A stretch of 64,000 nt of DNA from Myxococcota bacterium (GTDB lineage Bacteria > Myxococcota_A > UBA9160 > SMWR01), in NCBI GenBank assembly GCA_050618055.1, contig JBNLVK010000172.1:14644-78643 (forward strand), in the 5' to 3' direction. Of this stretch, positions 34,047-57,924 are shown one piece after another; within the stretch, counting starts at the first letter, position 1; every line of letters begins with the position of its first letter. The notes under the pieces were generated by a model that did not search any database, was not told the origin of the DNA, and worked only from the letters and a program-made list of their open reading frames with translations. The position numbers and the translations under genes were made by a program.

Positions 34047-34742
34047 ATGCCCGCGTTCAACGAGGAGATGCGGCAGCGCGTGACGCGCGTGCTCGACACC
34101 TTCACCTGCGGCGTCGTGGCCGAGGTGGATCGCCGCATCATCTTCGCCAACGAGAAGTTCGCGAAGATGGTGGGCGTTGCGCGGGAGTCGCTGTGGGGGG
34201 TCGAGACCCACGACCTGGTGCCGCCGGAGCTGCGCGACCAGCTGGTGGAGGAGGGCAACCTGTCGCGCCAGGGCGACCGGCGCACGCGGCTCACGGCGCT
34301 GCTCATGCACGACGGCACGACCCAGCCGGTGCTCGTCATGCCGATGGCGCGCTTCGAGACGATCGACACCGGCATCACCGTGGGCTTCGCGCTGATCATC
34401 GAGCTGAGCTCGGTCATGACCGCGAAGCACATGCTCTACGACGGCCGCGAGGAGCTGCGCTCGTCGCTGTCGCAGATCGCGGTGCAGCTGCACACCGCGA
34501 GCCTGCTGGCCGGCAACTCGCCGGCCGCCGACCCGGACATCCAGCACCCGGAGCTGGCCGAGCTGTCGCGCCGCGAGCGCGAGGTGCTGGCCCGGCTGGT
34601 CGAGGGCAAGCGCGTACCGGTCATCGCCCAGCAGCTCTTCATCAGCGCCCACACGGTGCGCAACCACCTGAAGAGCATGTTCCGCAAGCTGGGCGTCGGG
34701 TCGCAGGCGGAGCTGATCGAGTACGTGCGGGAGATCGGCTAG
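34047..34742 (+). CDS. PAS-domain LuxR-family transcriptional regulator
   Basis: 231 aa. The N-terminus is PAS-like (GVVAEVDRRIIFANEKFAKMVG). C-terminal LuxR HTH (LSRREREVLARLVEGKRVPVIAQQLFISAHTVRNHLKSMFRKLGV). Confidence 0.85.
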   Translation: MPAFNEEMRQRVTRVLDTFTCGVVAEVDRRIIFANEKFAKMVGVARESLWGVETHDLVPPELRDQLVEEGNLSRQGDRRTRLTALLMHDGTTQPVLVMPMARFETIDTGITVGFALIIELSSVMTAKHMLYDGREELRSSLSQIAVQLHTASLLAGNSPAADPDIQHPELAELSRREREVLARLVEGKRVPVIAQQLFISAHTVRNHLKSMFRKLGVGSQAELIEYVREIG

Positions 34743-34846
34743 GCCGACGGGTCCGCCGCGGGCCGCGTTTTGGCCCGCATTCGCCAGCCGAACGACCCAT
34801 TCGGGGGCATGTCGGGCGCGGCCGCCGTGCCGACCCTCTCGGCCCG

Positions 34847-36088
34847 ATGGCTGCTTCCGGCCCCCACGAGCCCCCCCGCCTCGACCTGGACCGCACCGCG
34901 GAAGAGCTGCGCCTGCACGCGCGGGCGCGATCGCGCGGCGCGCGCGGCCTGCCGCCGGCCGACGCCGCCGACCTCGACGAGGTCGAGCGGGAGATCGTCG
35001 AGCGGATCCGCGGCCGGGCGCTGCGCCGCGTGGCGGACGACGCGTCCCGGCTCGAGGCGCTCGACCGGGAGATCCAGTCGACGGACGTGCCGCAGCGCGT
35101 GCGCGCCCTGCGCCACGTGCCCACCGCGTTCCGGCGGCGCCTGCGCGAGCTGACCAACCGCACGTCGCTGGGCCTGGCGCGGGCCGAAGAGGAGTACGCC
35201 CTGGCCCGCAGCGGCTACGAGGCGTTCCGCGCGCTGCACCGCATCGAGCGCGAGCCGCGCTACCCGGCGTCGAAGCTGGCGCCGGCGGCGCTGCTGATGG
35301 CGCTGGGCGTGGCGAAGGCCGGCTTCGCCGCGTCGCTGCCGGCGCTGGGCGGCCACCCGGAGCTGGCCTTCGTGGCGGTGCTGGTGGCCTTCATCGACGT
35401 GCTGATCGCGTTCAGCCTGGGACGCGTCGCGCCGTGGGTGGCGGCGCCGCAGCGGTCGCAGCGGCTGGCCGGCTGGGGCGCCGTCGCGGGCTTCCTGGCC
35501 TGGGCGGGCGCCGTCAACGCGCTGGCCGGCAGCGCCGGGACGATCGCGCTGGGCTGGCTGCTGTCGCTCGGCGCGCTGGCGGTGGGCGCCGGCTCCGACG
35601 ATCGCACGCCCGGCTACGGACGCCTGCACCGGCGCCTGCTGCGCGCCCACGACCAGCGCGACTACTGGCGCAGCGCGGCGCTCGACGGCGCCGCCACGCT
35701 GCACGAACGCCAGCAGCTCTGCATCGACCAGGCCGAGCGGACCGCGCTACGCGAGCGCGACGCGCTGGCCCGCGCCGTCGAGGCCAAGGCACGCCTGCTG
35801 GCGGGCACGCTCGAGAGCAGCCAGCACCTGGAGAACGTGGGCAACGCCCTGCTGCGCCTCTACCGCGACGCCAACGGCGACGCCCGGACCACCCCGCCGC
35901 CCCCCCACTTCGACGCGGGCTGGCGCCTGGCGCTGGAGACGCCCGGCACCGGCTCCCTCGGCTTCGACCGCTCCCGGGTCCGCGACGCGGAGGAGGCCGC
36001 CCGCCACGTCGCCGCCCTGGCCGACGAGGCGCGCCGCGCCGTGCGCGCCGACTACGACGCGTTCGTGCGCGGGTGCCGGGCCGACTAG
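34847..36088 (+). CDS. hypothetical membrane protein (central TM block flanked by charged helical regions)
   Basis: This is the 3' part of track ORF 31970..36088, with ATG at 34847. 413 aa. Hydrophobic segments span residues ~145-250. No family was recognised. Confidence 0.6.
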   Translation: MAASGPHEPPRLDLDRTAEELRLHARARSRGARGLPPADAADLDEVEREIVERIRGRALRRVADDASRLEALDREIQSTDVPQRVRALRHVPTAFRRRLRELTNRTSLGLARAEEEYALARSGYEAFRALHRIEREPRYPASKLAPAALLMALGVAKAGFAASLPALGGHPELAFVAVLVAFIDVLIAFSLGRVAPWVAAPQRSQRLAGWGAVAGFLAWAGAVNALAGSAGTIALGWLLSLGALAVGAGSDDRTPGYGRLHRRLLRAHDQRDYWRSAALDGAATLHERQQLCIDQAERTALRERDALARAVEAKARLLAGTLESSQHLENVGNALLRLYRDANGDARTTPPPPHFDAGWRLALETPGTGSLGFDRSRVRDAEEAARHVAALADEARRAVRADYDAFVRGCRAD

Positions 36089-36094
36089 CTCCGG

Positions 36095-37336
36095 CTAGCG
36101 GCTCGACGCCTGCGGGCGCACCAGCCGGCGCAGGAAGGCGCCGAGATCGAGGCCGGTCGCTTCGAGGACGGCGTCGCCGAGCGAGGCGGTCGTCACCGGA
36201 TCGCGCTGGGCGGTGAGCCGGCGCACCACCTCGTCCAGGCTGTGGGCGCCCTCGCTGCGCTCGCGGATCTCGGCGTCCAGCGCCCGCAGCGCCACCACCG
36301 CGCGCGCCGTCACGTCGCCCGACGCCGAGTCGACCTCCAGCTTCGCGGCGCGCCGACCGCGCGTCGCGAGCTTCTGGTAGATCCGCTCGACGCGATCCTC
36401 GGCCAGCGTCCCGGAGCGCCGCAGCATCTCGATCGCGTAGAGCTCCGCCAGGCCCTCCACCACCCAGTCGCCGCCGTCGCCGCCCCGGATGCCGAGCAGC
36501 GCGTGCATCACCTCGTGCAGCAGCGGGCTGGTGCCGTCCTCGCCGATCAGCGGACGACGCGCGTGCACGTACACCGACTGGGGACCCGAGAGCCCGCCCC
36601 GCCACATGGGGTCGCCGGCGCCGACCACCAGCAGCCGCGGCGGAAGCTCGCCCAGCACGTCCTCCAGCACCGGCAGCGTCCAGCGCAGCAGCGCCAGCAT
36701 GTCGAGCCGCCGCATGCCGTGCTTCTTCGGGGCGGCGATGGCCACCTCCACGCCGTGCACCTCTTCGCGCACTGCACCGAGATGACCGACCACGAACCAG
36801 CCGGTGGGACGGTCGAAGCCCCGGTGCGGGTGGTTCACGCCGTAGACGCCGCCGCGCAGCAGCGGGTAGGGCGTGGCGCGCGACCAGCCCTCGGGCACGC
36901 GCAGCCGCAGCAGCGAGTGGGAGCGCGCCCCCTTCTGCACGCGCGAGCGCGTGGGCGGCACCAGGTCGTCGCCGCGGAACAGCGCCCAGGTCTTCGTGCA
37001 GCGCGCGTCGTAGCTGCGGTCGTCGCGCAGGTGGTCGACGAGGAACGTGTACCGCAGCTGGCCGCCGGCTTCGGGCGGCTTCCAGTGCACGCTGTCGTCG
37101 ACGACCGTCACCTCGCCGTCGCCGCGGAAGTCGAAGTGGCGCTGGGGGTCGATGCGCAGCGTCAGCTCGCGGACCAGGTGGGCGTTCGCTCCCAGCCGGA
37201 TGACGACGCGGGCGGCGCGCTCGGTGGGCACCATCCGCACGTCGTAGAGCACCTCGTAGACGTCGTCCTTCGCCAGGGCTCCCGCCGGCGCCAGCGCCAG
37301 CAGCGCGAGCGCCAGCAGGAGCGCGTTCCTAGACAA
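36095..37336 (-). CDS. exported HExxH (MA-clan, M1/M61-like) putative zinc peptidase
   Basis: 413 aa. The TTG start overlaps the upstream gene by 8 nt. Signal peptide LLLALALLALAPAGALA|KDD. Motif HEVMHALLG...EGLAELY. Confidence 0.7.
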   Translation of the reverse strand: MSRNALLLALALLALAPAGALAKDDVYEVLYDVRMVPTERAARVVIRLGANAHLVRELTLRIDPQRHFDFRGDGEVTVVDDSVHWKPPEAGGQLRYTFLVDHLRDDRSYDARCTKTWALFRGDDLVPPTRSRVQKGARSHSLLRLRVPEGWSRATPYPLLRGGVYGVNHPHRGFDRPTGWFVVGHLGAVREEVHGVEVAIAAPKKHGMRRLDMLALLRWTLPVLEDVLGELPPRLLVVGAGDPMWRGGLSGPQSVYVHARRPLIGEDGTSPLLHEVMHALLGIRGGDGGDWVVEGLAELYAIEMLRRSGTLAEDRVERIYQKLATRGRRAAKLEVDSASGDVTARAVVALRALDAEIRERSEGAHSLDEVVRRLTAQRDPVTTASLGDAVLEATGLDLGAFLRRLVRPQASSR

Positions 37337-38267
37337 CCGATCCTCCGATCTCCCGTCCGATCTCCAGACGTTCGCCCACGGAGAGACCCGGGCGCCAGCG
37401 CTCCTCCACCTGCTCCAGGCGCGGCAGCAGGCCGGCCCGGTTCGCCACCTGGATGGCCAGTCCGGGGCGCGCGTTCAGCTCCAGGATCAGCGCGCCCTGG
37501 CGCGCGTCGACCACCACGTCCGCCCCCACGTAGCCGAGCTCGGTCTCGTCGGTGGCGCGCACGGCGATCTCGAGGGCGCGGTCCCAGTCGGGCAGCAGGC
37601 GGTCGACCACCAGCTCGCCGGTGTCCGGGTGCCGGCGCGTCGACGTGCTGCGGACGACCGCGTGGGTGGTGCGTCCCGTCGCCAGGTCGATGCCCGCACC
37701 CACGGCGCCCTGGTGCAGGTTGGCGCGACCCCGCGAAGCCAGCGTCGGCAGCCGCGTCATGGCCATCACCGGAATGCCCCGGTGCACCACCACCCGCACG
37801 TCGGGCACGCCGTCCGACGCGATCGTGCGGAACTCGGGGTGGATCTCCAGGCACTCCTCGGCGAAGGCCGCGTCGTTCTGGCCGCCCAGCGAGTAGAGCC
37901 CGGAGAGGATGCCGGACGCGTGGTAGCGCAGGTCCTCGGCGTCGACCCACCCGCCGCCGGCGCGGCGCATGCGTCCCTCGACCCGCTCGCGCACCAGCAG
38001 GATGCCGTTGCCCATGGAGCCGCGCGCCGGCTTCAGCGCGAAGGCGGGCTCGCCCTCCAGCGCCCGCAGCAGCGGACCCACGTCGGCCTGGGTGCGCGCC
38101 ACCGCCAGCAGCCGCGCGGTCGGCACGCCGGCCTCGCGGCACAGCCCCTTGGTCAGCAGCTTGTCGTCGACCCGCGGATAGAAGCGCCGGTCGTTCCAGC
38201 GCAGCGTGTACTCGGCGTTGCGCCGGTTGATGCCCAGGAGACCCAGGTCGTGGAGGGTGCGCAGCAT
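37329..38267 (-). CDS. RimK-related alpha-L-glutamate-ligase-like ATP-grasp protein
   Basis: This is the 3' part of track ORF 37329..41396, with ATG at 38267. Sequence MLRTLHDLGLLGINRRNAEY...KPARGSMGNGILL...LELNARPGL. 312 aa. Confidence 0.85.
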   Translation of the reverse strand: MLRTLHDLGLLGINRRNAEYTLRWNDRRFYPRVDDKLLTKGLCREAGVPTARLLAVARTQADVGPLLRALEGEPAFALKPARGSMGNGILLVRERVEGRMRRAGGGWVDAEDLRYHASGILSGLYSLGGQNDAAFAEECLEIHPEFRTIASDGVPDVRVVVHRGIPVMAMTRLPTLASRGRANLHQGAVGAGIDLATGRTTHAVVRSTSTRRHPDTGELVVDRLLPDWDRALEIAVRATDETELGYVGADVVVDARQGALILELNARPGLAIQVANRAGLLPRLEQVEERWRPGLSVGERLEIGREIGGSVV

Positions 38268-38269
38268 GC

Positions 38270-39847
38270 TCAAGCGGGCGGACCCCCGGGCAGCGCCAGC
38301 GTGCGGAAGCGCACCAGCTCGAACAGCCGGTAGCCGGTGTAGCCGCCCACCCAGACCAGCGCGCCCATCACGCACAGGATCAGCTCCGGGAAGCCGAAGA
38401 ACACCGACGCGGCCAGCTCGCTCTGGAACACCGGGTAGATGCAGACCGCCACCAGCGCGGTCCAGGCGAGCCGCGTGCAGGCCTCGCGCCAGCCCTCCTC
38501 CGAGCTGGTGATCGAGAAGCGCTCGATCAGCATGGCCAGGATCACGATGGGCAGCAGCACGCCTCCGAACAGGTTGCGGCTGTCGAGTCCGCGGCCCATG
38601 GCCGCGAACAGGGCGACGGTCAGCACCACCGTCGACAGCAGGATGCACAGGCGCGGCACCAGCAGCAGGTGCAGGCGATCGAGCAGCACGCGCGAGAAGA
38701 CGCCCACCAGGATGACCGACGAGACCATCGCCAGGCCGGGCAGCAGGTCGGTGCCGCGCAGCGCCAGCGCCACCAGCACGGGCAGGAACGTGCCGAAGGT
38801 GGGCACGCCCACCAGGTTGCGCATGAACGCCATGAGCAGCGCGCCCACCGGAACCAGCAGCAGCAGGCGCAGCGCGCTCTGGGTCGCCACCGGCAGGCGG
38901 TAGAGCGAGAGGTTGGCCAGCACCGGGTTCGGCGGCTTCATCAGTGCGGCCAGCTCCGCGGAGCTGAGCCGTTCGCGCAGCGCGCGGTAGCGGTAGGACA
39001 TGGCCGACACGCCGGTGCCGCGCACCGGCTCGCCGCCGCCGGTGTGCAGGCGCACCCAGTCGGCGGGCCGCGCGGCGAAGAATCCCTCGCTGGGCGACAT
39101 GGGTACCCAGCGCCGACCGGCGAAGGCCTCCACCCAGGTGCGGGGGCGCGGATCGCGGTCGTCGTGGAGGCTCAGCCCCAGCACCACCCGCGCCGGAATG
39201 CCGGCCGCGCGCAACAGCGTGCACAGCAGCCGCGCCTTGCCCTGCTCGCTGCCCTCGCGAGCCAGCAGCGCCAGCAGCGCGTCGTCGCTCTCGCCCTCCA
39301 CCAGGGCGATCTCGTCGGCGACGAAGGCGAACAGGGTGCGCAGGCGACCGATCGCGTCTTCGGGCTCCGGCAGCTGGAGCGAGGCCAGCAGCTCGGCCAC
39401 CTCGGGCGCGTCGGTGGGAAGGTCCTGGGTGCTGCCACCGTAGGTGGCCAGCAGCTCGCGCGGCGGCGGCTGCTGGTCCTTCTCGGAGAGGGGGACGCGC
39501 CCCGGGGCCAGCTTCACGCGGAAGCCGTGGATCAGGTTGTGGACGCCGTCGAGCACCCCGCTCCAGACGCCCACCCGCTGACCGTCCTCGCGCCGGATCG
39601 TGAACAGCAGGCGGTCCGAGAGCATGTGCTCGTCGGACACGAGCTGGCCCGGACCCGTGGACGGCAGCGTCGCGGTGACGCTGCCGCGGGTGCGCTGGCC
39701 GCGCGTGCTCACCTCCAGCTCCACCCGCCACAGGCCCTCGGGATCCGAGGGGATCACCGGCAGGCCCAGGCCCACCGCCTTCCAGGTGAAGACGCCGAGC
39801 CCCGCGGCGATCAGCGCCGCTCCCGTCCACGCGACGTTGGCTCGCAT
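38270..39847 (-). CDS. membrane protein: inactivated transglutaminase-like domain fused to a ~7-TM C-terminal domain
   Basis: 525 aa. N-terminal TM segment. The transglutaminase-like core LLCTLLRAAGIPARVVLG carries E/R/S at the catalytic triad positions. The C-terminal ~230 aa contain multiple TM helices. Confidence 0.8.
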   Translation of the reverse strand: MRANVAWTGAALIAAGLGVFTWKAVGLGLPVIPSDPEGLWRVELEVSTRGQRTRGSVTATLPSTGPGQLVSDEHMLSDRLLFTIRREDGQRVGVWSGVLDGVHNLIHGFRVKLAPGRVPLSEKDQQPPPRELLATYGGSTQDLPTDAPEVAELLASLQLPEPEDAIGRLRTLFAFVADEIALVEGESDDALLALLAREGSEQGKARLLCTLLRAAGIPARVVLGLSLHDDRDPRPRTWVEAFAGRRWVPMSPSEGFFAARPADWVRLHTGGGEPVRGTGVSAMSYRYRALRERLSSAELAALMKPPNPVLANLSLYRLPVATQSALRLLLLVPVGALLMAFMRNLVGVPTFGTFLPVLVALALRGTDLLPGLAMVSSVILVGVFSRVLLDRLHLLLVPRLCILLSTVVLTVALFAAMGRGLDSRNLFGGVLLPIVILAMLIERFSITSSEEGWREACTRLAWTALVAVCIYPVFQSELAASVFFGFPELILCVMGALVWVGGYTGYRLFELVRFRTLALPGGPPA

Positions 39848-39853
39848 TCGCGG

Positions 39854-41011
39854 CTATTCCTCGGGACGCAGCTCGTCTTCGGGGGCCCAGAGCTCGACCG
39901 TCTCCTCGTCGACGCCGATGTCGACGGGAACGATCGCGCCGATCGGCTCGAGCGCCAGGTGGAAGGCGGCGAAGCCCGGGATCACCACCTGGTTGAGCGC
40001 CATGCCGACGATGCGACCCGAGTAGGGCGAGGTGACGACGGCCCGGTGGTCCGACATGGGGTCGGTGACGGTGCCCAGCGCCTGGCCCTTCTCGACCTGC
40101 GCGCCCAGCCGGGCGCTGGTCAGCAGGATGCCGCCATCGTCCACACGCACCCAGCTCGAGCGGAAGTACAGCTCGGTGGGCGGGCTCTCGTCGGGGGGGA
40201 GGGTCACCATCCCCAATCCTGCCATCAGCCGCATGGATCCGGCTACTCCCGCCTCGATGCCCTCCTCCTCGAAGCGCATGGGCTCGCCCACCTCGAAGGT
40301 GATGGCCGGAATGCCCGCCTCCACGGCCGCCCGGCGCAGCGTCCCGGAGCGGCTGACGCTGTGGATCGCCAGCGGCGCCCGGAACCAGCGGGTCAGACGG
40401 ACCACGCGCTCGTTGCGCAGGTCGGCCCGCACGTGGGGCATGTTCGTGCGGTGGAACGATCCGGTGTGGAAGTCCACCAGGTAGCTGCAGCGCCGGATCA
40501 CCCCCTCGAAGACCCGCAGGGCGATGCGCGAGGCCGAGCTGCCGCCCTCGCGTCCGGGGAAGAAGCGGTTCAGGTCGCGGCGGTCGGGCAGGTAGCGCGA
40601 GCTGCGGCGGAAGCCGTGCGGGTTCACGATCGGCACCGCCACGACCGTGCCGCGCAGCATCTCCGGCGTGAGCCCCTCGGACACGCGCCGCACCGCCTCG
40701 ACCCCGATCAGCTCGTCGCCGTGGATGCCCGCCGTCAGGCACAGCACCGGACCCGGCGACGTGCCCCGGGTGACGACCACCGGCATGGCCACGCGCACGC
40801 CGGCGAAGGACTCGCTGGTCTCGAACTCGACCCGGCGCTTCACGCCGGCCTCGAAGCTCTCGCCCGCGATCTCGAGGGGCGCCGGCGGGACCGCCACCGG
40901 CACGCTCGCCGACGGAGGCGCCGTCAGCACGGACCCCGCCAGGGCTGCTCCGATGCAGCCGGCCCGAACGACAGACCACGAACCCGTCAAGCGCGCCCCA
41001 CGAACCCGCAC
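39854..41011 (-). CDS. succinylglutamate desuccinylase/aspartoacylase (M14-like) family protein, probably exported
   Basis: 385 aa with a GTG start. Zinc motif TAGIHGDELIG. Also NPHGF and VDFHTG. The N-terminus is hydrophobic. Confidence 0.85.
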   Translation of the reverse strand: MRVRGARLTGSWSVVRAGCIGAALAGSVLTAPPSASVPVAVPPAPLEIAGESFEAGVKRRVEFETSESFAGVRVAMPVVVTRGTSPGPVLCLTAGIHGDELIGVEAVRRVSEGLTPEMLRGTVVAVPIVNPHGFRRSSRYLPDRRDLNRFFPGREGGSSASRIALRVFEGVIRRCSYLVDFHTGSFHRTNMPHVRADLRNERVVRLTRWFRAPLAIHSVSRSGTLRRAAVEAGIPAITFEVGEPMRFEEEGIEAGVAGSMRLMAGLGMVTLPPDESPPTELYFRSSWVRVDDGGILLTSARLGAQVEKGQALGTVTDPMSDHRAVVTSPYSGRIVGMALNQVVIPGFAAFHLALEPIGAIVPVDIGVDEETVELWAPEDELRPEE

Positions 41012-41091
41012 GGTATCGCTTCGGCTCCTCGGACGCGCGTCCGGAGCGGAAAGCGACGCGGGCGGCAGCGCGCCGGTATGCTCTGGCCGGC

Positions 41092-41781
41092 GTGCGGCAA
41101 AGACCCGAAACGAAGCGGATCGCGTGGCTGCTGCTCGGCCTGCTCGCGTGCCAGCCGGCGGCGCTGCTGGCCGGTCCGGCGCTCGCGGCGGGCGAGCGCG
41201 TGATCGAGGGTCGGGTGGTGCGGGTGATCGACGGCGACGACCTGGAGGTCCGCCACGACGGCCGCACCACGCGCGTCCGCCTGTCCGGCGTCGACGCGCC
41301 CGAGAGCGGCCAGCCCTGGGGCCGGCGCGCCAGGCAGGCCCTGTCGGAGCGGACCTTCGGCAAGCCGGTGCGCGTCATCGACGTCGACGCGCGCACCTAC
41401 GGCCGCACGGTCGGCGAGGTCTACGCCGACGACGTCTGCGTCGGCTGCGAGCTGGTGCGCGAGGGCCACGCCTGGGTCTACCGCCGCTACACCGACGACC
41501 CGGTCCTGCTGCGACTGGAGGCCGAGGCCCGCGAGAACCGTCGCGGCCTGTGGGGCCTGCCGCCGAGCGAACGCATTCCGCCCTGGGAGTGGCGCCGGGG
41601 CGTGCGCGAGCCGGCGCCGGACCCGTCCCGGGACGACGCCCCCTTCCGCTGCGGCGCGAAGCGCTACTGCCAGGAGATGCGCAGCTGCGCCGAGGCGCGC
41701 TTCCACCTGGTCGAGTGCGGGCTCACGCGCATCGACGGGGACGGCGACGGCGTGCCCTGCGAGAAGCTCTGCACCGACTAG
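41092..41781 (+). CDS. secreted thermonuclease (SNase) family nuclease with C-terminal Excalibur Ca-binding domain
   Basis: 229 aa. SNase motifs VIDGDDLEV...RLSGVDAPE...GRTVGEVY...GHAWVYRRY. Excalibur motif DGDGDGVPCE. Confidence 0.85.
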   Translation: MRQRPETKRIAWLLLGLLACQPAALLAGPALAAGERVIEGRVVRVIDGDDLEVRHDGRTTRVRLSGVDAPESGQPWGRRARQALSERTFGKPVRVIDVDARTYGRTVGEVYADDVCVGCELVREGHAWVYRRYTDDPVLLRLEAEARENRRGLWGLPPSERIPPWEWRRGVREPAPDPSRDDAPFRCGAKRYCQEMRSCAEARFHLVECGLTRIDGDGDGVPCEKLCTD

Positions 41782-49890: not shown

Positions 49891-52800
49891 ATGACGATCC
49901 GCGTCGCGCTACACCACCGCACGCTCTACCGCTACGACCGCCGCGTCGAGCTGTCGCCGCAGATCGTGCGGCTGCGCCCGGCCCCCCACTGCCGCACGCC
50001 GGTCACCAGCTACTCGCTGCGCATCGAGCCCGCGGGGCACTTCCTGAACTGGCAGCAGGATCCGCAGAGCAACTGGCTGGCGCGGCTGGTGTTCCCGGAC
50101 CCGGTGGAGCGCTTCGGCCTGACGGTGGATCTCGTCGCCGAGCTGTCGGTGCAGAACCCCTTCGACTTCTTCCTGGAGGAGTCGGCCGAGGAGTTCCCGT
50201 TCCAGTACGAGGGCTGGCTGTCGAAGGAGCTGGCGCCCTACCTGCAGACGCTGCCGGTGGGGCCCCGGCTGGCCGACTGGCTGGCCAGCATCGACCGCAC
50301 GCCGCGGCGCAGTGTCGACTTCCTGGTGGGGCTGAACCACCGGCTCTCCGAGGAGATCCGGTACCTGATCCGCATGGAGCCGGGCGTCCAGACCTGCGAG
50401 GAGACGCTCGAGCGCGGCAGCGGATCGTGTCGCGACACGGCCTGGCTGCTGGTGCAGGTGCTGCGCAACCTGGGGCTCGCCGCGCGCTTCGTGTCCGGGT
50501 ACCTCGTCCAGCTGCGCCCGGACCAGAAGCCGGTCGACGGACCCGCCGGCGCCGAGGAGGACTTCACCGACCTGCACGCCTGGGCCGAGGTGTACCTGCC
50601 CGGCGCGGGCTGGGTGGGTCTCGATCCCACGTCGGGGCTCTTCGCCGGCGAGGGTCACCTGCCGCTGGCCGCCACGCCGGATCCGGCTTCGGCGGCGCCG
50701 GTGAGCGGCGCGGTGGGCGAGTGCGAGGTGGAGTTCGAGTTCGAGATGCGGGTCGAGCGCATCCACGAGGACCCGCGCGTCACGCGTCCCTACACCGAAG
50801 AGGCCTGGCAGCGCATCGAGGCGCTGGGCGAGCGCATCGACGACGAGCTGCGCGCGGGCGACGTGCGGCTCACCATGGGCGGCGAGCCCACCTTCGTCTC
50901 CGCCATCGACATGGAAGGCGACGAGTGGAACTACACCGCCATGGGTCCCACCAAGCGCGGGCTGGCCGAGGCGCTGCTGCGCCGCATGCACGCGCGGCTG
51001 GCGCCGGGGGGGCTCCTCCACTTCGGTCAGGGCAAGTGGTACCCGGGCGAGCCGCTGCCGCGCTGGGCGCTGGCCTGCGTTGCGCGACGCGACGGGCTGC
51101 CGGTGTGGAACGAGCCGAAGCTCCTGGCCGACGGCGAGAGCGACCACGGCTTCGGCGCCGACCACGCCGAGCGCTTCGCCCGGCGGCTGGCCGAGGAGCT
51201 GGCGGTCGACCCGGACTACGCGGTGCCGGCCTACGAGGATCCGGTGGATCACCTGCGCCGCGAGGGGCGCCTGCCGCTGAACGTGGATCCTTTCGACAGC
51301 AAGCTCGAGGACCCGAAGGAGCGCGAGCGGCTGCGGCGCGTGTTCGAGCGCGGGCTCGGCACGCCGGTGGGCATGGCGCTGCCGCTCCAGCGCGTGCGCG
51401 GCGCCAGCGGACCCGAGTGGCAGAGCGGCCTGTGGATGCTGCGCGGGAAGCACCTGGTGCTGATCCCCGGCGACTCGCCGCTGGGCCTGCGGCTGCCGCT
51501 CTCGAGCCTGCCCTGGCAGGATCCGGAGCGTGCCGACTACAGCGAGCCGCTCGATCCCATGGCGCCGCGCCAGCCGCTGGCGCCGCCCACGCGACCGCCG
51601 CGGCGCGAGCCGCCGGTGCGCATGAGCCTGCGCGGCGCCGCCGACCCCGAGCGCGAGCGCGTGAACGAGCAGCGCCTGCCGCACGACGCGGACCGCGTGC
51701 CGGGGGCCGGCGAGTCGGCCGACTGGGTGGTGCGCTCGGCGCTGTGCGTCGAGGCCCGCGAGGGACGCCTCCACGTCTTCCTGCCGCCGCTGCGCACCGC
51801 CGACGACTTCCTCGAGCTGGTGTCGGCGGTGGAGGCGACCGCAGCGGAGCTCGACATGCCCGTGGTGGTCGAGGGCTACCCGCCGCCGGCGGATCCGCGC
51901 CTCGACCGCTTCAGCGTGACGCCGGACCCGGGCGTGCTCGAGGTGAACGTGCGACCCGCCGAGAGCTGGCGCCAGCTGGTGGACGAGACCACCGCGCTCT
52001 ACGAGGACGCGCGCCAGCTCCACCTGGGCACCGAGAAGTTCATGCTCGACGGCCGTCACAGCGGCACCGGCGGCGGCAACCACATCGTGCTGGGGGGACC
52101 CTCGGCGCCGGACAGCCCGCTCTTGCGTCGCCCCGACCTGCTGCGCAGCCTGCTGGGCTTCTGGCTCGACCATCCATCGCTCTCCTACCTCTTCTCCGGC
52201 CTCTTCATCGGTCCCACCAGCCAGGCGCCGCGCATCGACGAGGCGCGCCACGAGAGCGTCTACGAGCTGGCCATCGCCTTCGAGCAGATCCCCGACCCGG
52301 GCGCGGGCGAGTGCCCGCCCTGGCTGGTCGACCGCATCTTCCGCCACCTGCTGACCGACGTGACCGGCAACACCCACCGGGCCGAGTTCTGCATCGACAA
52401 GCTCTACGCGCCCGAGAGCTCGACCGGACGGCTCGGGCTGCTCGAGCTGCGCGCCTTCGAGATGCCGCCCCACGCGCGCATGAGCCTGACCCAGCAGCTG
52501 CTGCTGCGCGCGCTGGTGGCCTGGTTCTGGCGCGAGCCCTACCGGAGCGAGCTGCCGCGCTGGGGTACCCAGCTGCACGACCGCTTCCTGCTGCCCCACT
52601 TCGTCGACCAGGACTTCCGCGGCGTGCTGCGCGACCTGACGGAAGCCGGCTACCCCTTCGAGCGCGCCTGGTTCGACGCCCACTTCGAGTTCCGCTTCCC
52701 GAAGGTGGGCAGCGTGGCGCCCCACGGTGTGGAGATCGAGCTGCGCAATGCCATCGAGCCCTGGCACGTGCTGGGCGAGGAGCCCGGCTCGGGCGGCACG

Positions 52801-53241
52801 GTGCGCAACGTGGACTCGTCGCTCGAGCGCATCCAGGTGCGGGTGCGCGGGCTGGCCGGCGATCGCCATGCGGTGGCCTGCAACGGCCGGGCGCTGCCGC
52901 TGCGGCCCACCGGCGTCGAGGACGAGTGGGTGGCGGGCGTGCGCTTCCGCGCCTGGCAGCCGCCCTCCTGCCTGCACCCGACCATCCCGGTGCACGCGCC
53001 GCTGGTCTTCGACCTGGTGGACCGACGCGCCGGCCGCTCGCTGGGCGGCTGCACCTACCGGGTCGTCCACCCGGGCGGACGCAGCTACGACACCTTCCCG
53101 GTCAACGCCAACGAGGCCGAGGCCCGCCGCGCGGCGCGCTTCGAGCCGTTCGGTCACACTCCGGGTCCGATGGAGCTGGGCGAGCCGGAGCGCAACCCCC
53201 AGTTCCCGCACACCCTGGACCTCCGACGGAGACCCGCTTGA
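49891..53241 (+). CDS. large transglutaminase-family protein (N-terminal transglutaminase core plus DUF2126-type region)
   Basis: 1116 aa. Sequence [17 protein letters not shown]. The catalytic triad context is intact ([32 protein letters not shown]). Confidence 0.9.
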
Positions 53242-55739
53242 CGGTCGCGGTGAAGGGACACTGGGACGAGACCGCCCGCCCCGACGGCGCTCCCAGCCCG
53301 GCCTGGCAGCGCCTGATGGGGGCGCTCGAGCGGCTGGGCAGCGGCGAGCTGATGGTGCGCTGGGAGCAGGCGCGCCGGCTGCTCCAGGAGAACGGCGTCA
53401 CCTACAACGTCTACGGCGATCCGCGCGGCGTCGAGCGACCCTGGCAGCTCGACGCCGTCCCCATGCTGCTCGAGTCGCAGGAGTGGGCGGGCATCGAGGC
53501 GGCCGTGGCGCAGCGGGCCATGCTGCTCGACCGGGTGCTGGCCGACCTCTACGGACCGCAGCGGCTGCTGCGCGAAGACCTGCTGCCGCCGGAGCTGGTG
53601 TTCGCGCACCCGGGCTTCCTGCGCGCCTGCCACGGGCTGGCGGTGCCCGGCGATCGCTGGCTGCACGTCTACGCCGTCGACCTGGCGCGCTCGCCGGACG
53701 GCCAGTGGTGGGTGATCGCCGACCGCACCCAGGCGCCGTCGGGTGCGGGCTACACGCTGGAGAACCGGGTGGTGATGTCGCGGGTCATGCCCGAGGTGTT
53801 CCGCGAGTTCAACGTGAACCGGCTGGCCGGCTTCTTCCAGACCTACCGCGACTCGCTGCGCCGGCTGGCGCCGCCGGGCACCGACGCGCCGCGCATCGTG
53901 CTGCTGACGCCGGGTCCGTACAACGAGACCTACTTCGAGCACGCGTACCTGGCCCGCTACCTCGACTTCACGCTGGTGGAGGGCGCCGACCTGACGGTGC
54001 GCGACCAGCGCGTGTTCCTGAAGACGCTCCAGGGGCTTCAGCCGGTCGACGTCATCCTGCGCCGCCAGGACGCCCACTTCTGCGATCCGCTGGAGCTGTG
54101 GGGCGAGAGCGCGCTGGGCGTGCCCGGCCTGGTGCAGGCGGTGCGCGCCGGCAACGTGACCATCGCCAACGCGCTGGGGTCGGGCCTGGTGGAGACCAGC
54201 ACGATCATGGCCTTCCTGCCCGGCCTGTGCCGCCACCTGCTGGGCGAAGAGCTGCGCATGCCGTCGGTGGCCACCTGGTGGTGCGGTCAGGACCGGGAGC
54301 GCGAGTACACGCTGGCGCACCTGGACGAGCTGGTGCTGAAGCCCGCCTTCGCCGGTCCGGCGGGGCCCGACCAGGAGGTGGTGTTCGGCGGCGAGCGAAC
54401 GCAGGAGCAGCAGGGCGAGCTGGCCGAGCGCATTCGCGCGAAGCCCCACCGCTGGGTCGCCCAGGAGAAGGTGGCGCTCTCGACCGTGCCCACCGGCGAC
54501 CAGGACGGTCTCCAGCCGCGGCACATGGTGCTGCGCGTCTACGCGGTGGCCGACGGCGACGGCGGCTGGTCGGTCATGCCCGGCGGGCTCACGCGCGTGT
54601 CGAGCACGGCGGACAGCCTGGTGGTGTCGAGCCAGCGGGGCGGCGCCAGCAAGGACACCTGGGTGCTGTCCGACGCGCCGACGCCCTACGTGAGCCTGCT
54701 GCCGGCGGAGGGTCGGGCCGCCGACGTGTCGCGCGCCAGCTACTCGCTGACGAGCCGCACGGCGGACAATCTCTTCTGGCTGGGACGCGGCAGCGAGCGC
54801 ATCGAGGCGAGCCTGCGCCTGGTGCGCGCGGCCCTCCAGACCCTGGCCGAGGAGCCGCTGCGTCCGGCCGACGCGCCGCTGCCCGAGGCGGTGGCGCTGG
54901 TCGAGCGGTTGAAGCTGCTGCCCGAAGGCGACGAGGAGGGCGTCGGCCCGGAGGAACGGCTGTTCGCCGCGCTCTTCGACCGGGCGCAGCCCGGGTCGGT
55001 GGCGGGCAGCATTGCCGAGGTGCACCGGCTGGCCTGGCTGCTGCGCGACCGCATCTCGCCCGACGCCTGGCGCGTGCTGAGCCGCATCGACCAGGCGTTC
55101 GTGGCGCCCGACGTGCACCCGGCGCTGCGTGTCTCGGGCGTGCTCGAGCTGCTGGACGACACGCTGCTGCGCATTGCCGCCTTCACCGGACTGGTGGTCG
55201 AGGGCATGACCCGCGGCCTGGGCTGGCAGTTCCTGGAGGTGGGCCGGCGCGTCGAGCGCGGCATCCAGATCGCCGAGCTGCTGCGGGAGAGCCTGGTGGA
55301 GGAGCTGCCGGAGGGGTCGCGCCTGCTCGAGACCGTGCTGACGGTGGCCGACTCGTCCATGACCTACCGCTCGCGCTACCAGTCGTCGCTCCAGCTCCTG
55401 CTGGTGCTCGACCTGCTGCTGCTCGACGAGCTGAACCCGCGCTCGCTGACCTTTCAGCTGCTGGGGCTGGAGGAACGCTTCCGCGGTCTGCACCGCGCGC
55501 CCCACGACGCGCTGGCGGCGCTGGTGGCGCTGGTGCGCGAGACGCCGCTCGACGCGCTGGTGGCGCTGCAGCCGTCGACCGACGGGGGACCGGCGCGGCG
55601 TCCGGAGCTCGCGCGCGTGCTCGACGGCGTGCGCAGCGGCCTGCCCGAGCTGGCCGACGCGCTGAACCACGCCTACCTGAGCCACGCGCTGCCGTTCCGC
55701 CAGGGGCCCGGCTTCCGCCCCGGAGAGGGAGAGGTCTAG
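53238..55739 (+). CDS. fused circularly permuted ATP-grasp + alpha-E domain protein
   Basis: This is the 3' part of track ORF 50427..55739. The start is TTG 53238 (TTGA overlap) or GTG 53250. ATP-grasp motifs (WWVIADRTQAPSGAGYTLENR, NALGSGLVETS) are followed by alpha-E motifs (ADNLFWLGRGSERIEASLRL). Confidence 0.85.
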   Translation: MTVAVKGHWDETARPDGAPSPAWQRLMGALERLGSGELMVRWEQARRLLQENGVTYNVYGDPRGVERPWQLDAVPMLLESQEWAGIEAAVAQRAMLLDRVLADLYGPQRLLREDLLPPELVFAHPGFLRACHGLAVPGDRWLHVYAVDLARSPDGQWWVIADRTQAPSGAGYTLENRVVMSRVMPEVFREFNVNRLAGFFQTYRDSLRRLAPPGTDAPRIVLLTPGPYNETYFEHAYLARYLDFTLVEGADLTVRDQRVFLKTLQGLQPVDVILRRQDAHFCDPLELWGESALGVPGLVQAVRAGNVTIANALGSGLVETSTIMAFLPGLCRHLLGEELRMPSVATWWCGQDREREYTLAHLDELVLKPAFAGPAGPDQEVVFGGERTQEQQGELAERIRAKPHRWVAQEKVALSTVPTGDQDGLQPRHMVLRVYAVADGDGGWSVMPGGLTRVSSTADSLVVSSQRGGASKDTWVLSDAPTPYVSLLPAEGRAADVSRASYSLTSRTADNLFWLGRGSERIEASLRLVRAALQTLAEEPLRPADAPLPEAVALVERLKLLPEGDEEGVGPEERLFAALFDRAQPGSVAGSIAEVHRLAWLLRDRISPDAWRVLSRIDQAFVAPDVHPALRVSGVLELLDDTLLRIAAFTGLVVEGMTRGLGWQFLEVGRRVERGIQIAELLRESLVEELPEGSRLLETVLTVADSSMTYRSRYQSSLQLLLVLDLLLLDELNPRSLTFQLLGLEERFRGLHRAPHDALAALVALVRETPLDALVALQPSTDGGPARRPELARVLDGVRSGLPELADALNHAYLSHALPFRQGPGFRPGEGEV

Positions 55740-56665
55740 TGCTGTACGCCCTGCGCCACCGGACCACCTACGAGTACAGCGACACGGCGGTGATCTCCCA
55801 CAACCTGGGCCACCTGCTGCCGCGCAGCTCGGAGCACCAGACGCTCCACAAGCTGGAGCTGGGCATCGATCCGAGCCCGGCGGCGGTGCAGTGGCACCGC
55901 GACTACTTCGGCAACGACGTGGTGTTCTTCGCGCTCCAGCAGCCCCACGAGCGGCTGGTGGTGAACGCCGAGAGCCGGGTGGAGGTGAAGCCGCGCGCGG
56001 CGCTGCGCCTCGAGGCGTCGCCACCCTGGGAGGAGGTGGTGGAGAGCGTGCGGCGGGGACGCGACGACGCGTCGCTGGCGGCCTACGAGATGGTCTGGGA
56101 GTCGCCGTTCGTCTCCACCGGTCCCGACTTCGCCGACTACGCGCGCGCCGCGTTCACGCCGGGCCGGCCCCTGGCCGAGGCGCTGCTCGACCTGAACGCG
56201 CGCATGCACCGCGAGTTCCGCTACGACCCGGAGGCCACCACCCTGGCCACGCCCATCGAGGAGGTGCTGGCCCAGCGCCACGGCGTCTGCCAGGACTTCG
56301 CGCACCTGATGATCGGCTGCCTGCGGTCGCTGGGGCTGCCGGCGCGCTACGTGAGCGGCTACCTGAAGAGCGCCGAGCCGAAGAAGAAGCAGGAGAAGCA
56401 GAAGCAGGCGGCCGCCGGCGAGGCCGACCTGGTGGGATCCGAGGCCTCCCACGCCTGGGTGTCCGCCTGGTGTCCCGCCAACGGCTGGATCGACGTGGAC
56501 CCGACCAACGACGTGGTGCCCTCGGAGCGCCACGTGGTGCTGGCCCACGGCCGCGACTACGACGACGTGAGCCCGCTGAAGGGCGTGACCCTCGGCGGGG
56601 GCGGCCACACGGTGACCGTGGCCGTGTCGGTGCGGCCGGTGGAGGAGGTGGAGGCCTCCGCCTGA
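55739..56665 (+). CDS. transglutaminase-family protein (small form, intact Cys-His-Asp)
   Basis: GTG at 55739 overlaps the upstream TAG by 1 nt. Sequence LYALRHRTTYEYS, with HGVCQDFAH and SHAWVSAW...DVDPTN. 308 aa. Confidence 0.88.
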   Translation: MLYALRHRTTYEYSDTAVISHNLGHLLPRSSEHQTLHKLELGIDPSPAAVQWHRDYFGNDVVFFALQQPHERLVVNAESRVEVKPRAALRLEASPPWEEVVESVRRGRDDASLAAYEMVWESPFVSTGPDFADYARAAFTPGRPLAEALLDLNARMHREFRYDPEATTLATPIEEVLAQRHGVCQDFAHLMIGCLRSLGLPARYVSGYLKSAEPKKKQEKQKQAAAGEADLVGSEASHAWVSAWCPANGWIDVDPTNDVVPSERHVVLAHGRDYDDVSPLKGVTLGGGGHTVTVAVSVRPVEEVEASA

Positions 56666-56688: not shown

Positions 56689-57924
56689 GTGAAGACGGGG
56701 TACGGCAGGGCGTTCGGGGCGATCGGGCTCTGGCTGTGCATCGCGGCCGCGCCCGGCTTCGCCGAGGACGAGCCCGACCTGGGAAAGCCCGAAGCCGCCT
56801 GCCAGGCGGGTAGCGGCGCGGCCTGCGCCTACGTCGGCCGCCTGCTGCTGGTCGGCGCCCGGGGCGAGGAGCGCGCGGCCGAGGGGCGGGCGCTCCTCGA
56901 ACGCGGCTGCGAGCTCGAAGACGCGGACGCCTGCCTGCTCTTCGGCTCGGCGCTGCGCCAGGGTCTGGGCGGCCCCGCCGACGAGGCGGCAGGCGCGCGG
57001 GCCCACGAGAAGGGCTGCGACCTCGGCGCGGGGCTGGCGTGCACCCAGCTCGGTCTCGCCTTCATGCGCGGCAGCGTGGTGGAGCAGGACGACGCCCGTG
57101 CGCGCCAGCTCTTCGAGCGCGGCTGCGCGCTGGGCGACGCACAGGGGTGTCACAACCTGGGCGTCTACAGGCGCGACGGCCGAGGCGGGCCGGTCGACAC
57201 CGACGGCGCCCTCGCCGCCTTCCGGACCGGCTGCGACCTGGGCGACCTGACCCCCTGCGCCGACGTCGGCGCCAGCCTGGCGCGGGGCCGGCTCGGCCCC
57301 GAGCACGCAGCAGAGGGCCGCACGCTGCTGGCGCGCTCCTGCGACGGCGGCTTCGCCCGCGCCTGCAACGACCTGGCCGTCGCCTTCCGCCAGGGCGACG
57401 GCGGCCCCGCCGACCTGGAGGAGAACCTGCGCCTGCACGAGCGCGCCTGCGAGCTGGACTACGCGCCGAGCTGCACCCAGGCCGGCAACGCCTACCTGCA
57501 AGGGAAGGTGGTGGAGAAGGACCCGGCCCGCGCGACGGCCTTCTACGAGAAGGCCTGCCAGGGCGAGGACGAGACCGGCTGCCACAACCTGGCGGTCGCG
57601 CAGCGCGGGAGCACCGGCGCGGTCACGACGAAGATCGGCTCGATGACGGTCGGCTCGCGCGGCCGCACCGCCACCTTCCGCGACGTCGAGTCGAGCTGCG
57701 GGATGATCGCGATCACGGCGGCCTTCGGCGGCGCGGCGGCGGGCATTCGCGAGTGCCTGGACCGGGGCGGGAGCCGGCGCGTCAGCCTGGTCATCGAGGC
57801 GGGCCGGCTGGCGAGCGCCCGCGTCGAGCCCGACGACGAGGTGGGCGAGTGCATCGTGGATGCGATCGGCGGCGCTCCGCTCGGAAACTTCACCTGCACG
57901 CTCGACGCCACGGTGTCGCGCTAG
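56689..57924 (+). CDS. exported Sel1-like (Hcp-type Cys-paired) repeat protein with a C-terminal 4-Cys domain
   Basis: 411 aa with a GTG start. Signal peptide WLCIAAAPGFA|ED. There are about 8 repeats of the C-x(6-8)-C...G-x-G type (e.g. GCELEDADACLLFG, GCALGDAQGCHNLG). Confidence 0.8.
   Translation: MKTGYGRAFGAIGLWLCIAAAPGFAEDEPDLGKPEAACQAGSGAACAYVGRLLLVGARGEERAAEGRALLERGCELEDADACLLFGSALRQGLGGPADEAAGARAHEKGCDLGAGLACTQLGLAFMRGSVVEQDDARARQLFERGCALGDAQGCHNLGVYRRDGRGGPVDTDGALAAFRTGCDLGDLTPCADVGASLARGRLGPEHAAEGRTLLARSCDGGFARACNDLAVAFRQGDGGPADLEENLRLHERACELDYAPSCTQAGNAYLQGKVVEKDPARATAFYEKACQGEDETGCHNLAVAQRGSTGAVTTKIGSMTVGSRGRTATFRDVESSCGMIAITAAFGGAAAGIRECLDRGGSRRVSLVIEAGRLASARVEPDDEVGECIVDAIGGAPLGNFTCTLDATVSR

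Follow-up and report, generated by a model that had tools for sequence, protein, structure and literature searches.

Among described systems, the locus analyzed here is closest to rloABC, a stress-tolerance operon of Pseudomonas aeruginosa (Lormand et al., mBio 2025, PMC12239564). RloA and its two paralogues belong to the retropepsin-like aspartic proteases, are secreted and cleave runs of at least 8 Glu residues; the need for at least 8 consecutive Glu is strict in vitro, and the residues of RloA that bind polyglutamate (polyE) are required in vivo. Deletion of rloA1-3 is lethal in hypo-osmotic medium and impairs cell shape, biofilms and the tolerance of beta-lactams, and a deletion of rloB or rloC suppresses these effects. 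The genetics comes from P. aeruginosa only, in which no genome-encoded periplasmic polyE protein was found, and Proteobacteria make up 96% of the RloB hits (PMC12239564). Here we analyzed a four-gene operon (genes A, B, C and D) in a stretch of 64,000 nucleotides from a Myxococcota contig (JBNLVK010000172.1), which is called the window below. B and C are, as judged from their profiles, full-length homologues of RloB and RloC, and the operon is a lineage-specific version of rlo in which the retropepsin RloA is replaced by two exported zinc peptidases, A and D.

The B-C core itself is not new: the names of its Pfam families show that computational work has recognised it for years, and genetic work has done so since 2025. 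An earlier sequence-only reading of this DNA knew of no experimental function for such genes; that statement is outdated because the counterparts of B and C in rloABC are RloB and RloC, and the genetics of that operon in P. aeruginosa has been reported (PMC12239564). What is new is the clade-specific architecture without RloA and with an M61-like family and an exported AstE-like enzyme. Gene neighbourhoods of this kind were reportedly described first, on computational grounds, by Iyer et al. in 2009, and that work may have remarked on part of the AstE association already.

The four genes lie on the minus strand in the order A, B, C, D and fill positions 36095-41011 of the window. The sequence-only reading had described a tightly packed operon, and its junctions were recovered exactly: B starts (ATG) 6 nucleotides (nt) after the stop codon of A, C starts (ATG) 2 nt after that of B, and C and D overlap by 8 nt (TTGTCTAG) at the TTG start of D at 37336. 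Overlaps of 4 nt between C and D are seen in homologous loci. The G+C content at third codon positions is about 0.95 in all four genes, which is the expectation for real genes in a sequence of 74% GC. Profile searches matched A (PF24827), B (PF14402) and C (TIGR02291/PF14397) and gave no match for D. Hydropathy agreed with the mixed topology that had been proposed, in which the ligase is cytoplasmic, the pseudo-transglutaminase sits in the membrane and the peptidase-like proteins are exported.

The conservation of this arrangement was surveyed in 82 loci, 80 of them taken from representative genomes via the B family and two from contig look-ups, and the loci were scored by tblastn and Pfam. 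The close clade comprises 30 loci in which B and window B share at least 41% identity, almost all from metagenome-assembled genomes (MAGs) of Myxococcota or 'Deltaproteobacteria', and the distant set comprises 52 loci from Gamma-, Beta- and Alphaproteobacteria, Desulfobacterota and others. The denominators 28, 49, 46 and 63 used below are the loci with enough flanking sequence. B and C are adjacent in 81 of the 82 loci. D is found after C in 27 of 28 close loci and never in the distant ones (0 of 46), and A stands ahead of B in 20 of 28 close loci and is missing from the other 8. An RloA-type gene (PF05618) lies ahead of B in 40 of the 49 distant loci and in none of the 28 close ones; in the window, Pfam found no PF05618 protein in the operon and tblastn with four RloA sequences found no RloA homologue in the whole 64 kb (best E 0.15). 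On the D side, 80 metagenomic D loci were collected, and C lies directly upstream of D in 45 of the 63 with room, in the same order, on the same strand and with overlapping or near-overlapping reading frames. The A-B-C-D arrangement is conserved far beyond chance, the conserved unit of the close clade is B-C-D, and A is a frequent fourth member. The sequence-only reading was right to call the pairing with two exported peptidase-like proteins a variant.

The B protein matched PF14402 (1.5e-60), PF01841 Transglut_core (3e-12) and PF14400 (3e-7), and the description of PF14402 reads '7 transmembrane helices usually fused to an inactive transglutaminase'. The NCBIfam model for RloB (NF052267, 'exception' type) aligned over the full length (residues 11-517) with 195 bits, under its cut-off of 900, and the NCBI name of the protein is UUP1. 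The layout proposed earlier, an anchor, a transglutaminase-like domain and about seven transmembrane (TM) helices, was borne out by an anchor at residues 11-29 and by seven hydrophobic segments between residues 324 and 500. The AlphaFold2 (AF2) model, with a predicted local distance difference test (pLDDT) score of 81.6, has an N-terminal helix, a beta-sandwich, a transglutaminase core and a helical membrane bundle. The 7TM domain carries many invariant Arg and Glu residues and a conserved C-terminal tail, GGYTGYR...RFR.

For the catalytic triad, a profile alignment of 26 B homologues was compared with the two active transglutaminases of the window, which carry GSCRD and GVCQD motifs and belong to a second cluster at 49891-56662. 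This alignment puts E201, R236 and S251 of B at the Cys, His and Asp positions, and no conserved Cys was found in the transglutaminase domain among the 26 homologues, so the replacement of the whole triad stands as first read. Without a Cys-His-Asp triad, B does not class with the active transglutaminase-like cysteine proteases of PF01841. C209 was considered as an alternative nucleophile and dropped; it is the only Cys of this copy, and relatives have Val, Ala or Ile there.

C scored 338 bits against TIGR02291 ('alpha-L-glutamate ligase-like protein'), above the curated cut-off of 314, and matched PF14397 with 4e-70. The RimK match covers residues 232-271 only (PF08443), around the Mg/ATP motif; the RimK model TIGR00768 gave 40 bits for a cut-off of 143 and RimK_N is absent, which sets C apart from RimK proper. 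The ELN Mg-binding motif reads LILELNARPG, and phmmer of C against the PDB gave no match. C was found to have no hydrophobic segment, as would follow from the earlier description of an ATP-grasp protein without signal sequence. We class C as a predicted RimK relative of the TIGR02291/RloC family.

The identity of D comes from its AF2 model and Foldseek, because the searches of the PDB by sequence and profile gave noise only. D has no Pfam match at the gathering threshold of Peptidase_M61 (PF05299) or M1, and NCBIfam gave a weak flagellinolysin match and nothing else. The AF2 model, built from 40 homologues, has a pLDDT of 92, and its best Foldseek matches in the PDB are the M61 structures 4fgm (E 1.7e-20), 7xyo (2e-19) and 8j9c (7e-18), followed by many M1 aminopeptidases. 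Similarity to Pfam M61 below threshold is also present in 25 of the 40 members of the D family (best E 2e-4). A zinc site of the HExxH type with a downstream Glu, in a thermolysin-like domain that follows a beta-sandwich, places D structurally in the M61/M1 group, and the 'metallopeptidase-like' label once given to the HEVMH...EGLAELY protein is right for the zinc site and can be refined to this aminopeptidase fold. A strand with GDPMWRGG lies about 30 residues upstream of HExxH; D242-P-M-W-R-G-G and Y300 are invariant in the 40 homologues. D looks catalytically competent because the zinc site, GDPMWRGG and Y300 are all invariant in the family. M1 enzymes have GxMEN where D has GDPMWRGG, and for this reason the specificity of D cannot be inferred. 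With more than 2,300 database relatives at E <= 0.001, D represents a previously unnamed family of exported M61-like proteins without Pfam model or annotation.

A belongs to PF24827 AstE_AspA_cat (1e-39, 136 bits, cut-off 25 bits). The motifs HGDE (97-100), DLNRFFPG (146), DFHTG (180) and FEVGE (239) are retained relative to 3cdx and DoeB 6twl, and the HxxE...H zinc ligands and the catalytic Glu of the AstE/AspA family are present. Enzymes of this type cleave amide bonds to a C-terminal Glu or Asp. The scores of A under the equivalog models are 76 bits for DoeB (cut-off 403), 26 for AstE (306), 25 for aspartoacylase (180) and 18 for MpaA (157).

Both A and D had been said to start with signal-like segments. 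This holds for D, whose signal peptide is of the classic type by hydropathy; in A the segment is weak (best 10-mer hydropathy of the h-region 2.0) and is present only with the long GTG start at 41011. The NCBI start of A lies 27 codons downstream, cuts off 40931-41011 and leaves 358 amino acids (aa) without the signal-like segment. A strong N-terminal hydrophobic segment in 111 of 120 A homologues, a GAGGAG upstream of the long start and the unmistakable signal peptides of gammaproteobacterial A relatives suggest that the deposited start is too short, and favour the long, exported form. A lipoprotein reading of the N-terminus (VRAGC) was dropped, the sequence not being a lipobox.

The two hydrolases differ in how far they extend beyond this operon. 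Eighteen of the 63 D homologues (about 29%, at 41-52% identity) stand alone in varied contexts, and no common neighbour or alternative partner gene was found among these 18. Nine of these copies were read, and all retain the signal peptide, GDPMWRGG and HExxH...E; the D family thus exists also as a stand-alone exported peptidase. In seven gammaproteobacterial loci rloA-B-C is accompanied by an A homologue (44-49% identity) with a signal peptide, followed by an acidic, Pro-rich linker of 100-200 residues that window A does not have. The AstE-like partner is therefore not peculiar to Myxococcota, and only D is specific to the Myxococcota-type clade. At one Myxococcota MAG locus (L029, CBDCWV010000018.1, 12146-15145) a true RimK (RimK_N + RimK + TrkA_C) lies just downstream of A-B-C-D; next comes an AstE/AspA paralogue without a signal sequence (39% identity to window A), and a PF05618 retropepsin stands on the other strand beside RimK and the AstE-like gene. 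The retropepsin and AstE-like types hence also partner RimK, the known poly-alpha-glutamate ligase: both have cytoplasmic versions beside RimK and exported versions beside RloB/RloC.

Some loci carry other genes at these places. In Vulgatibacter-like Myxococcota (L030, 10532-11521; L034, 6828-7697) B-C is followed by a Transglut_i_TM/Transglut_core protein of about 300 aa, a soluble or anchored inactive transglutaminase without 7TM domain, and there is neither D nor RloA. In Fibrobacterota MAGs (L036, 2703-5165; L039, 10456-12918) an 820-aa TPR-repeat protein follows B-C and there is no peptidase. The sole close locus that has sequence beyond C and yet lacks D is from an Acidobacteriota MAG (L026, CP070706.1, 7015-11438, B 46% identical), and its flanking open reading frames of 311 and 276 aa have no Pfam match.

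On balance we consider it fairly probable that the operon encodes an envelope system of the rloBC type: C would make a (poly)glutamyl product, B would present this at the envelope, and its hydrolysis would fall to A and D. C would build an alpha-glutamyl product of oligo- or polyglutamate type in the cytoplasm, either as a free peptide or as Glu added to an acceptor, and B would pass the product across the inner membrane or display it there, with its dead transglutaminase domain acting as a periplasmic binding module and not as a catalyst. The exported A and D would trim or destroy the product in the periplasm, and in this way may do the job of RloA in Pseudomonas and prevent a harmful build-up. 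A cytoplasmic glutamyl product which is handled or trimmed at the envelope had already been suggested in the sequence-only reading and agrees with the current hypothesis for the homologous system; what we infer here is the chemistry of the product, its export through B and what A and D act on.

The main support for this envelope system comes from the swap of partners. Three mechanistically unrelated hydrolase families (retropepsin, AstE-like and M61-like) alternate on B-C, all with export signals, which argues for a hydrolysable, amide-linked product outside the cytoplasm. The core product is probably glutamyl as well, and the swap pattern would be hard to explain otherwise; it supports a peptide-like product which needs trimming outside the cytoplasm. 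A and D each keep intact, conserved catalytic motifs. We also count in favour of this reading the homology of B and C to RloB and RloC and their near-constant adjacency, the seven gammaproteobacterial loci with an A homologue beside rloA-B-C, the gene set around RimK in L029, and the P. aeruginosa findings on polyE cleavage by RloA and on suppression by rloB or rloC deletion.

Several points weigh against it. The signal peptide of A in this copy is weak and depends on the start codon, its score lies far under all AstE/AspA/DoeB equivalog cut-offs, and the characterised AstE/AspA/DoeB enzymes act on small N-acyl amino acids and not on peptides. The sequence of D does not tell an exopeptidase from an endopeptidase, and the stand-alone D genes mean that D is not dedicated exclusively to this system. 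In a fold search with the whole of B the solved-structure matches were limited to the periplasmic domain (3isr, transglutaminases) and the 7TM domain matched no solved transporter, so that export by B is a conjecture. The Pfam label of the ATP-grasp family of C is 'sugar-transfer associated', and the published work allows either free polyglutamate or a polyglutamylated protein as the substrate of RloA (PMC12239564).

A bolder form of the proposal, which we put forward tentatively and hold to be rather doubtful, is that RloB is a new kind of peptide exporter which receives a free alpha-glutamyl oligomer or polymer in the periplasm through its dead transglutaminase domain, and that different lineages independently recruited the three hydrolase families to degrade this product. 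The pairing of a carboxy-terminal with an amino-terminal exopeptidase fold would then point to a free peptide, not a glutamylated protein, as the natural substrate, and D would found a new family of metallopeptidases directed at polyglutamate.

Signalling from the outside inwards was weighed as the first rival explanation, and we think it unlikely. As a 7TM receptor, B would bind a periplasmic peptide with its dead transglutaminase domain and would control C; A and D (RloA elsewhere) would create or destroy the ligand, and C would glutamylate a cytoplasmic target, as RimK does with S6. An extracytoplasmic pseudo-enzyme domain, seven TM helices and a conserved cytoplasmic tail do make a receptor-like layout, to which the lack of a solved transporter match and the RimK kinship of C can be added, and the suppression of rloA loss by rloB or rloC deletion fits over-activation of C equally well. 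However, no known signalling output domain is present, and the origin of an acidic periplasmic peptide would be unexplained without an exporter; no genome-encoded periplasmic polyE protein was found in P. aeruginosa. A shared product explains the tight operon coupling of C with exported hydrolases more simply.

Editing of the cell wall, which seems to us improbable, would have C add an amino acid to a peptidoglycan precursor or envelope glycopolymer, B flip or position it, and A and D remodel stem peptides as murein-peptide amidases or peptidases. The cell-shape defects and beta-lactam sensitivity of P. aeruginosa rlo mutants would suit this, as would the over-production of membrane vesicles by a Shewanella mutant in an RloB-type inactive-transglutaminase/7TM gene and the 'sugar-transfer' label of the C family. 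A has weak matches to the murein tripeptide amidase MpaA (E 0.0014) and the M99 cell-shape carboxypeptidase (E 0.0066), but these reflect the general M14-like fold and are far under the cut-offs. The strictness of RloA for at least 8 consecutive Glu and its need for polyE-binding residues in vivo also speak against a murein substrate, and no mur, glycosyltransferase or flippase genes are conserved beside the operon in the 82 loci. A mere chance adjacency of the peptidase genes to B-C, for which one could cite the 18 stand-alone D homologues and the 8 close loci without A, is very unlikely and essentially excluded by the conservation counts, with D after C in 27/28 close and 45/63 metagenomic loci in constant order and strand and with (near-)overlapping frames.

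The proposed glutamyl-product system matters because rloABC in P. aeruginosa bears on osmotic tolerance, sensitivity to beta-lactams, the formation of biofilms and fitness related to virulence. The Myxococcota variant provides independent comparative evidence, with a constant core and a hydrolase swapped among three catalytic types, two of which also occur beside true RimK. It narrows the hypotheses on the unsolved, clinically relevant rlo system and offers direct tests, since A and D are two new, easily expressed enzymes for probing the product of the core, and it defines a large family of exported M61-like peptidases.

The coordinates of all features are collected in Table 1. A PAS-LuxR regulator and a convergent protein lie beyond D and a divergent nuclease gene lies beyond A; none of the three is kept beside the operon in related loci. 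With a divergent gene on one side and a convergent gene on the other, the four genes form a self-contained unit. Scans of 35600-41500 for consensus promoters and terminators gave no match, and such scans are uninformative at 74% GC.

Table 1. Features of the operon, its neighbours and the loci named by handle (window positions, 5' to 3' of the forward strand).
Feature	Coordinates	Strand	Description and basis
A, exported AstE/AspA-type (M14-like) zinc hydrolase	39854..41011	-	385 aa from GTG 41011
Signal-peptide-like N-terminus of A, residues 1-36	40903..41011	-	Arg-rich n-region, h-region AGCIGAALAGSVL, then PPSAS
HGDE zinc-binding motif of A, residues 97-100	40712..40723	-	alignment to family members
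B, RloB-like membrane protein, 525 aa	38270..39847	-	anchor, periplasmic beta-sandwich and inactive transglutaminase, 7TM
N-terminal TM anchor of B, residues 11-29	39761..39817	-	hydropathy; AF2 helix 3-26
Transglutaminase-like core of B, residues 148-260	39068..39406	-	hhalign and family alignment; triad replaced
Cys position of B, E201	39245-39247	-	hhalign to the two active transglutaminases of the window
His position of B, R236	39140-39142	-	hhalign to the two active transglutaminases of the window
Asp position of B, S251	39095-39097	-	hhalign to the two active transglutaminases of the window
7TM domain of B, residues 288-517	38297..38986	-	Pfam, family alignment, hydropathy, AF2
C, predicted cytoplasmic RloC-type ATP-grasp ligase, 312 aa	37329..38267	-	alpha-L-glutamate ligase-like
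C/D junction	37329..37346	-	GGAGGA 37341-37346, 4-nt spacer, D TTG start 37334-37336, overlap 37329-37336
D, exported gluzincin, M61/M1 aminopeptidase fold, 413 aa, TTG start	36095..37336	-	AF2, Foldseek
D signal peptide, residues 1-22	37271..37336	-	LLLALALLALAPAGALA, followed by KD; cleavage expected after ALA
HEVMH-x15-E zinc site of D (H274, E275, H278, E294)	36455..36517	-	invariant in 40 homologues
PAS-LuxR regulator	34047-34742	+	neighbour of the operon
Convergent 428-aa protein	~34802-36088	+	no Pfam match; ends at 36088, beside the end of D
Exported SNase + Excalibur nuclease, divergent	41092-41781	+	neighbour on the A side
Stand-alone D loci			L111, L125, L134, L136, L139-L141, L144-L146, L150, L152-L154, L157, L159, L161, L162
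Gammaproteobacterial loci with A homologue			L038, L048, L061, L064, L071, L078 (A-like after rloC); L080 (A-like upstream)

A second, independent amidoligase/transglutaminase cluster lies at 49891-56662 (plus strand) of the window. It encodes a 1116-aa Bact_transglu_N + Transglut_core + DUF2126 fusion, an 829-aa CP_ATPgrasp_2 + Alpha-E fusion and a 308-aa Bact_transglu_N + Transglut_core protein, and is followed by a Sel1-repeat protein at 56689-57924.

When the operon is compared with known systems, this second cluster shares with it the combination of an ATP-grasp amidoligase and transglutaminase-fold proteins; it differs in its intact Cys-His-Asp triad, its circularly permuted ATP-grasp domain and the absence of a 7TM protein or exported peptidase. 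A has the zinc ligands and catalytic Glu motifs of the AstE/AspA/DoeB deacylases (PF24827; 3cdx, 6twl), enzymes that split a C-terminal or free Glu/Asp-type moiety off an amide, but it is exported and linked to a glutamate-ligase-like system, not to arginine or ectoine catabolism. D shares with the M61 glycyl aminopeptidases (7xyo, 8j9c, 4fgm) and M1 the N-terminal beta-sandwich, the thermolysin-like domain and HExxH...E; it is 413 aa long, whereas the M61 matches have 520-600 aa, and in place of the GxMEN of M1 it has a motif that contains Arg and Trp. With rimABK the operon has in common the pairing of an ATP-grasp alpha-L-glutamate ligase with a peptidase which removes glutamate; RimK and RimB are cytoplasmic and act on RpsF (polyglutamylation of ribosomal protein S6), unlike the window system with its membrane protein and exported hydrolases. 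Literature searches on UUP1, RimK with succinylglutamate desuccinylase, RloC follow-up and M61 structures yielded nothing further. The differences from rloABC are that PF05618 RloA is absent, that D lies downstream of C and A upstream of B, that window B is about 30-35% identical to proteobacterial RloB-type proteins and that the host, represented by a MAG, belongs to an uncultured Myxococcota lineage. In common with rloABC, the operon has an inner-membrane protein with an anchor, a periplasmic inactive transglutaminase and a 7TM domain (PF14400/PF14402), the hallmark of RloB, a cytoplasmic TIGR02291/PF14397 ATP-grasp gene directly after it, and an exported peptidase within the same operon.

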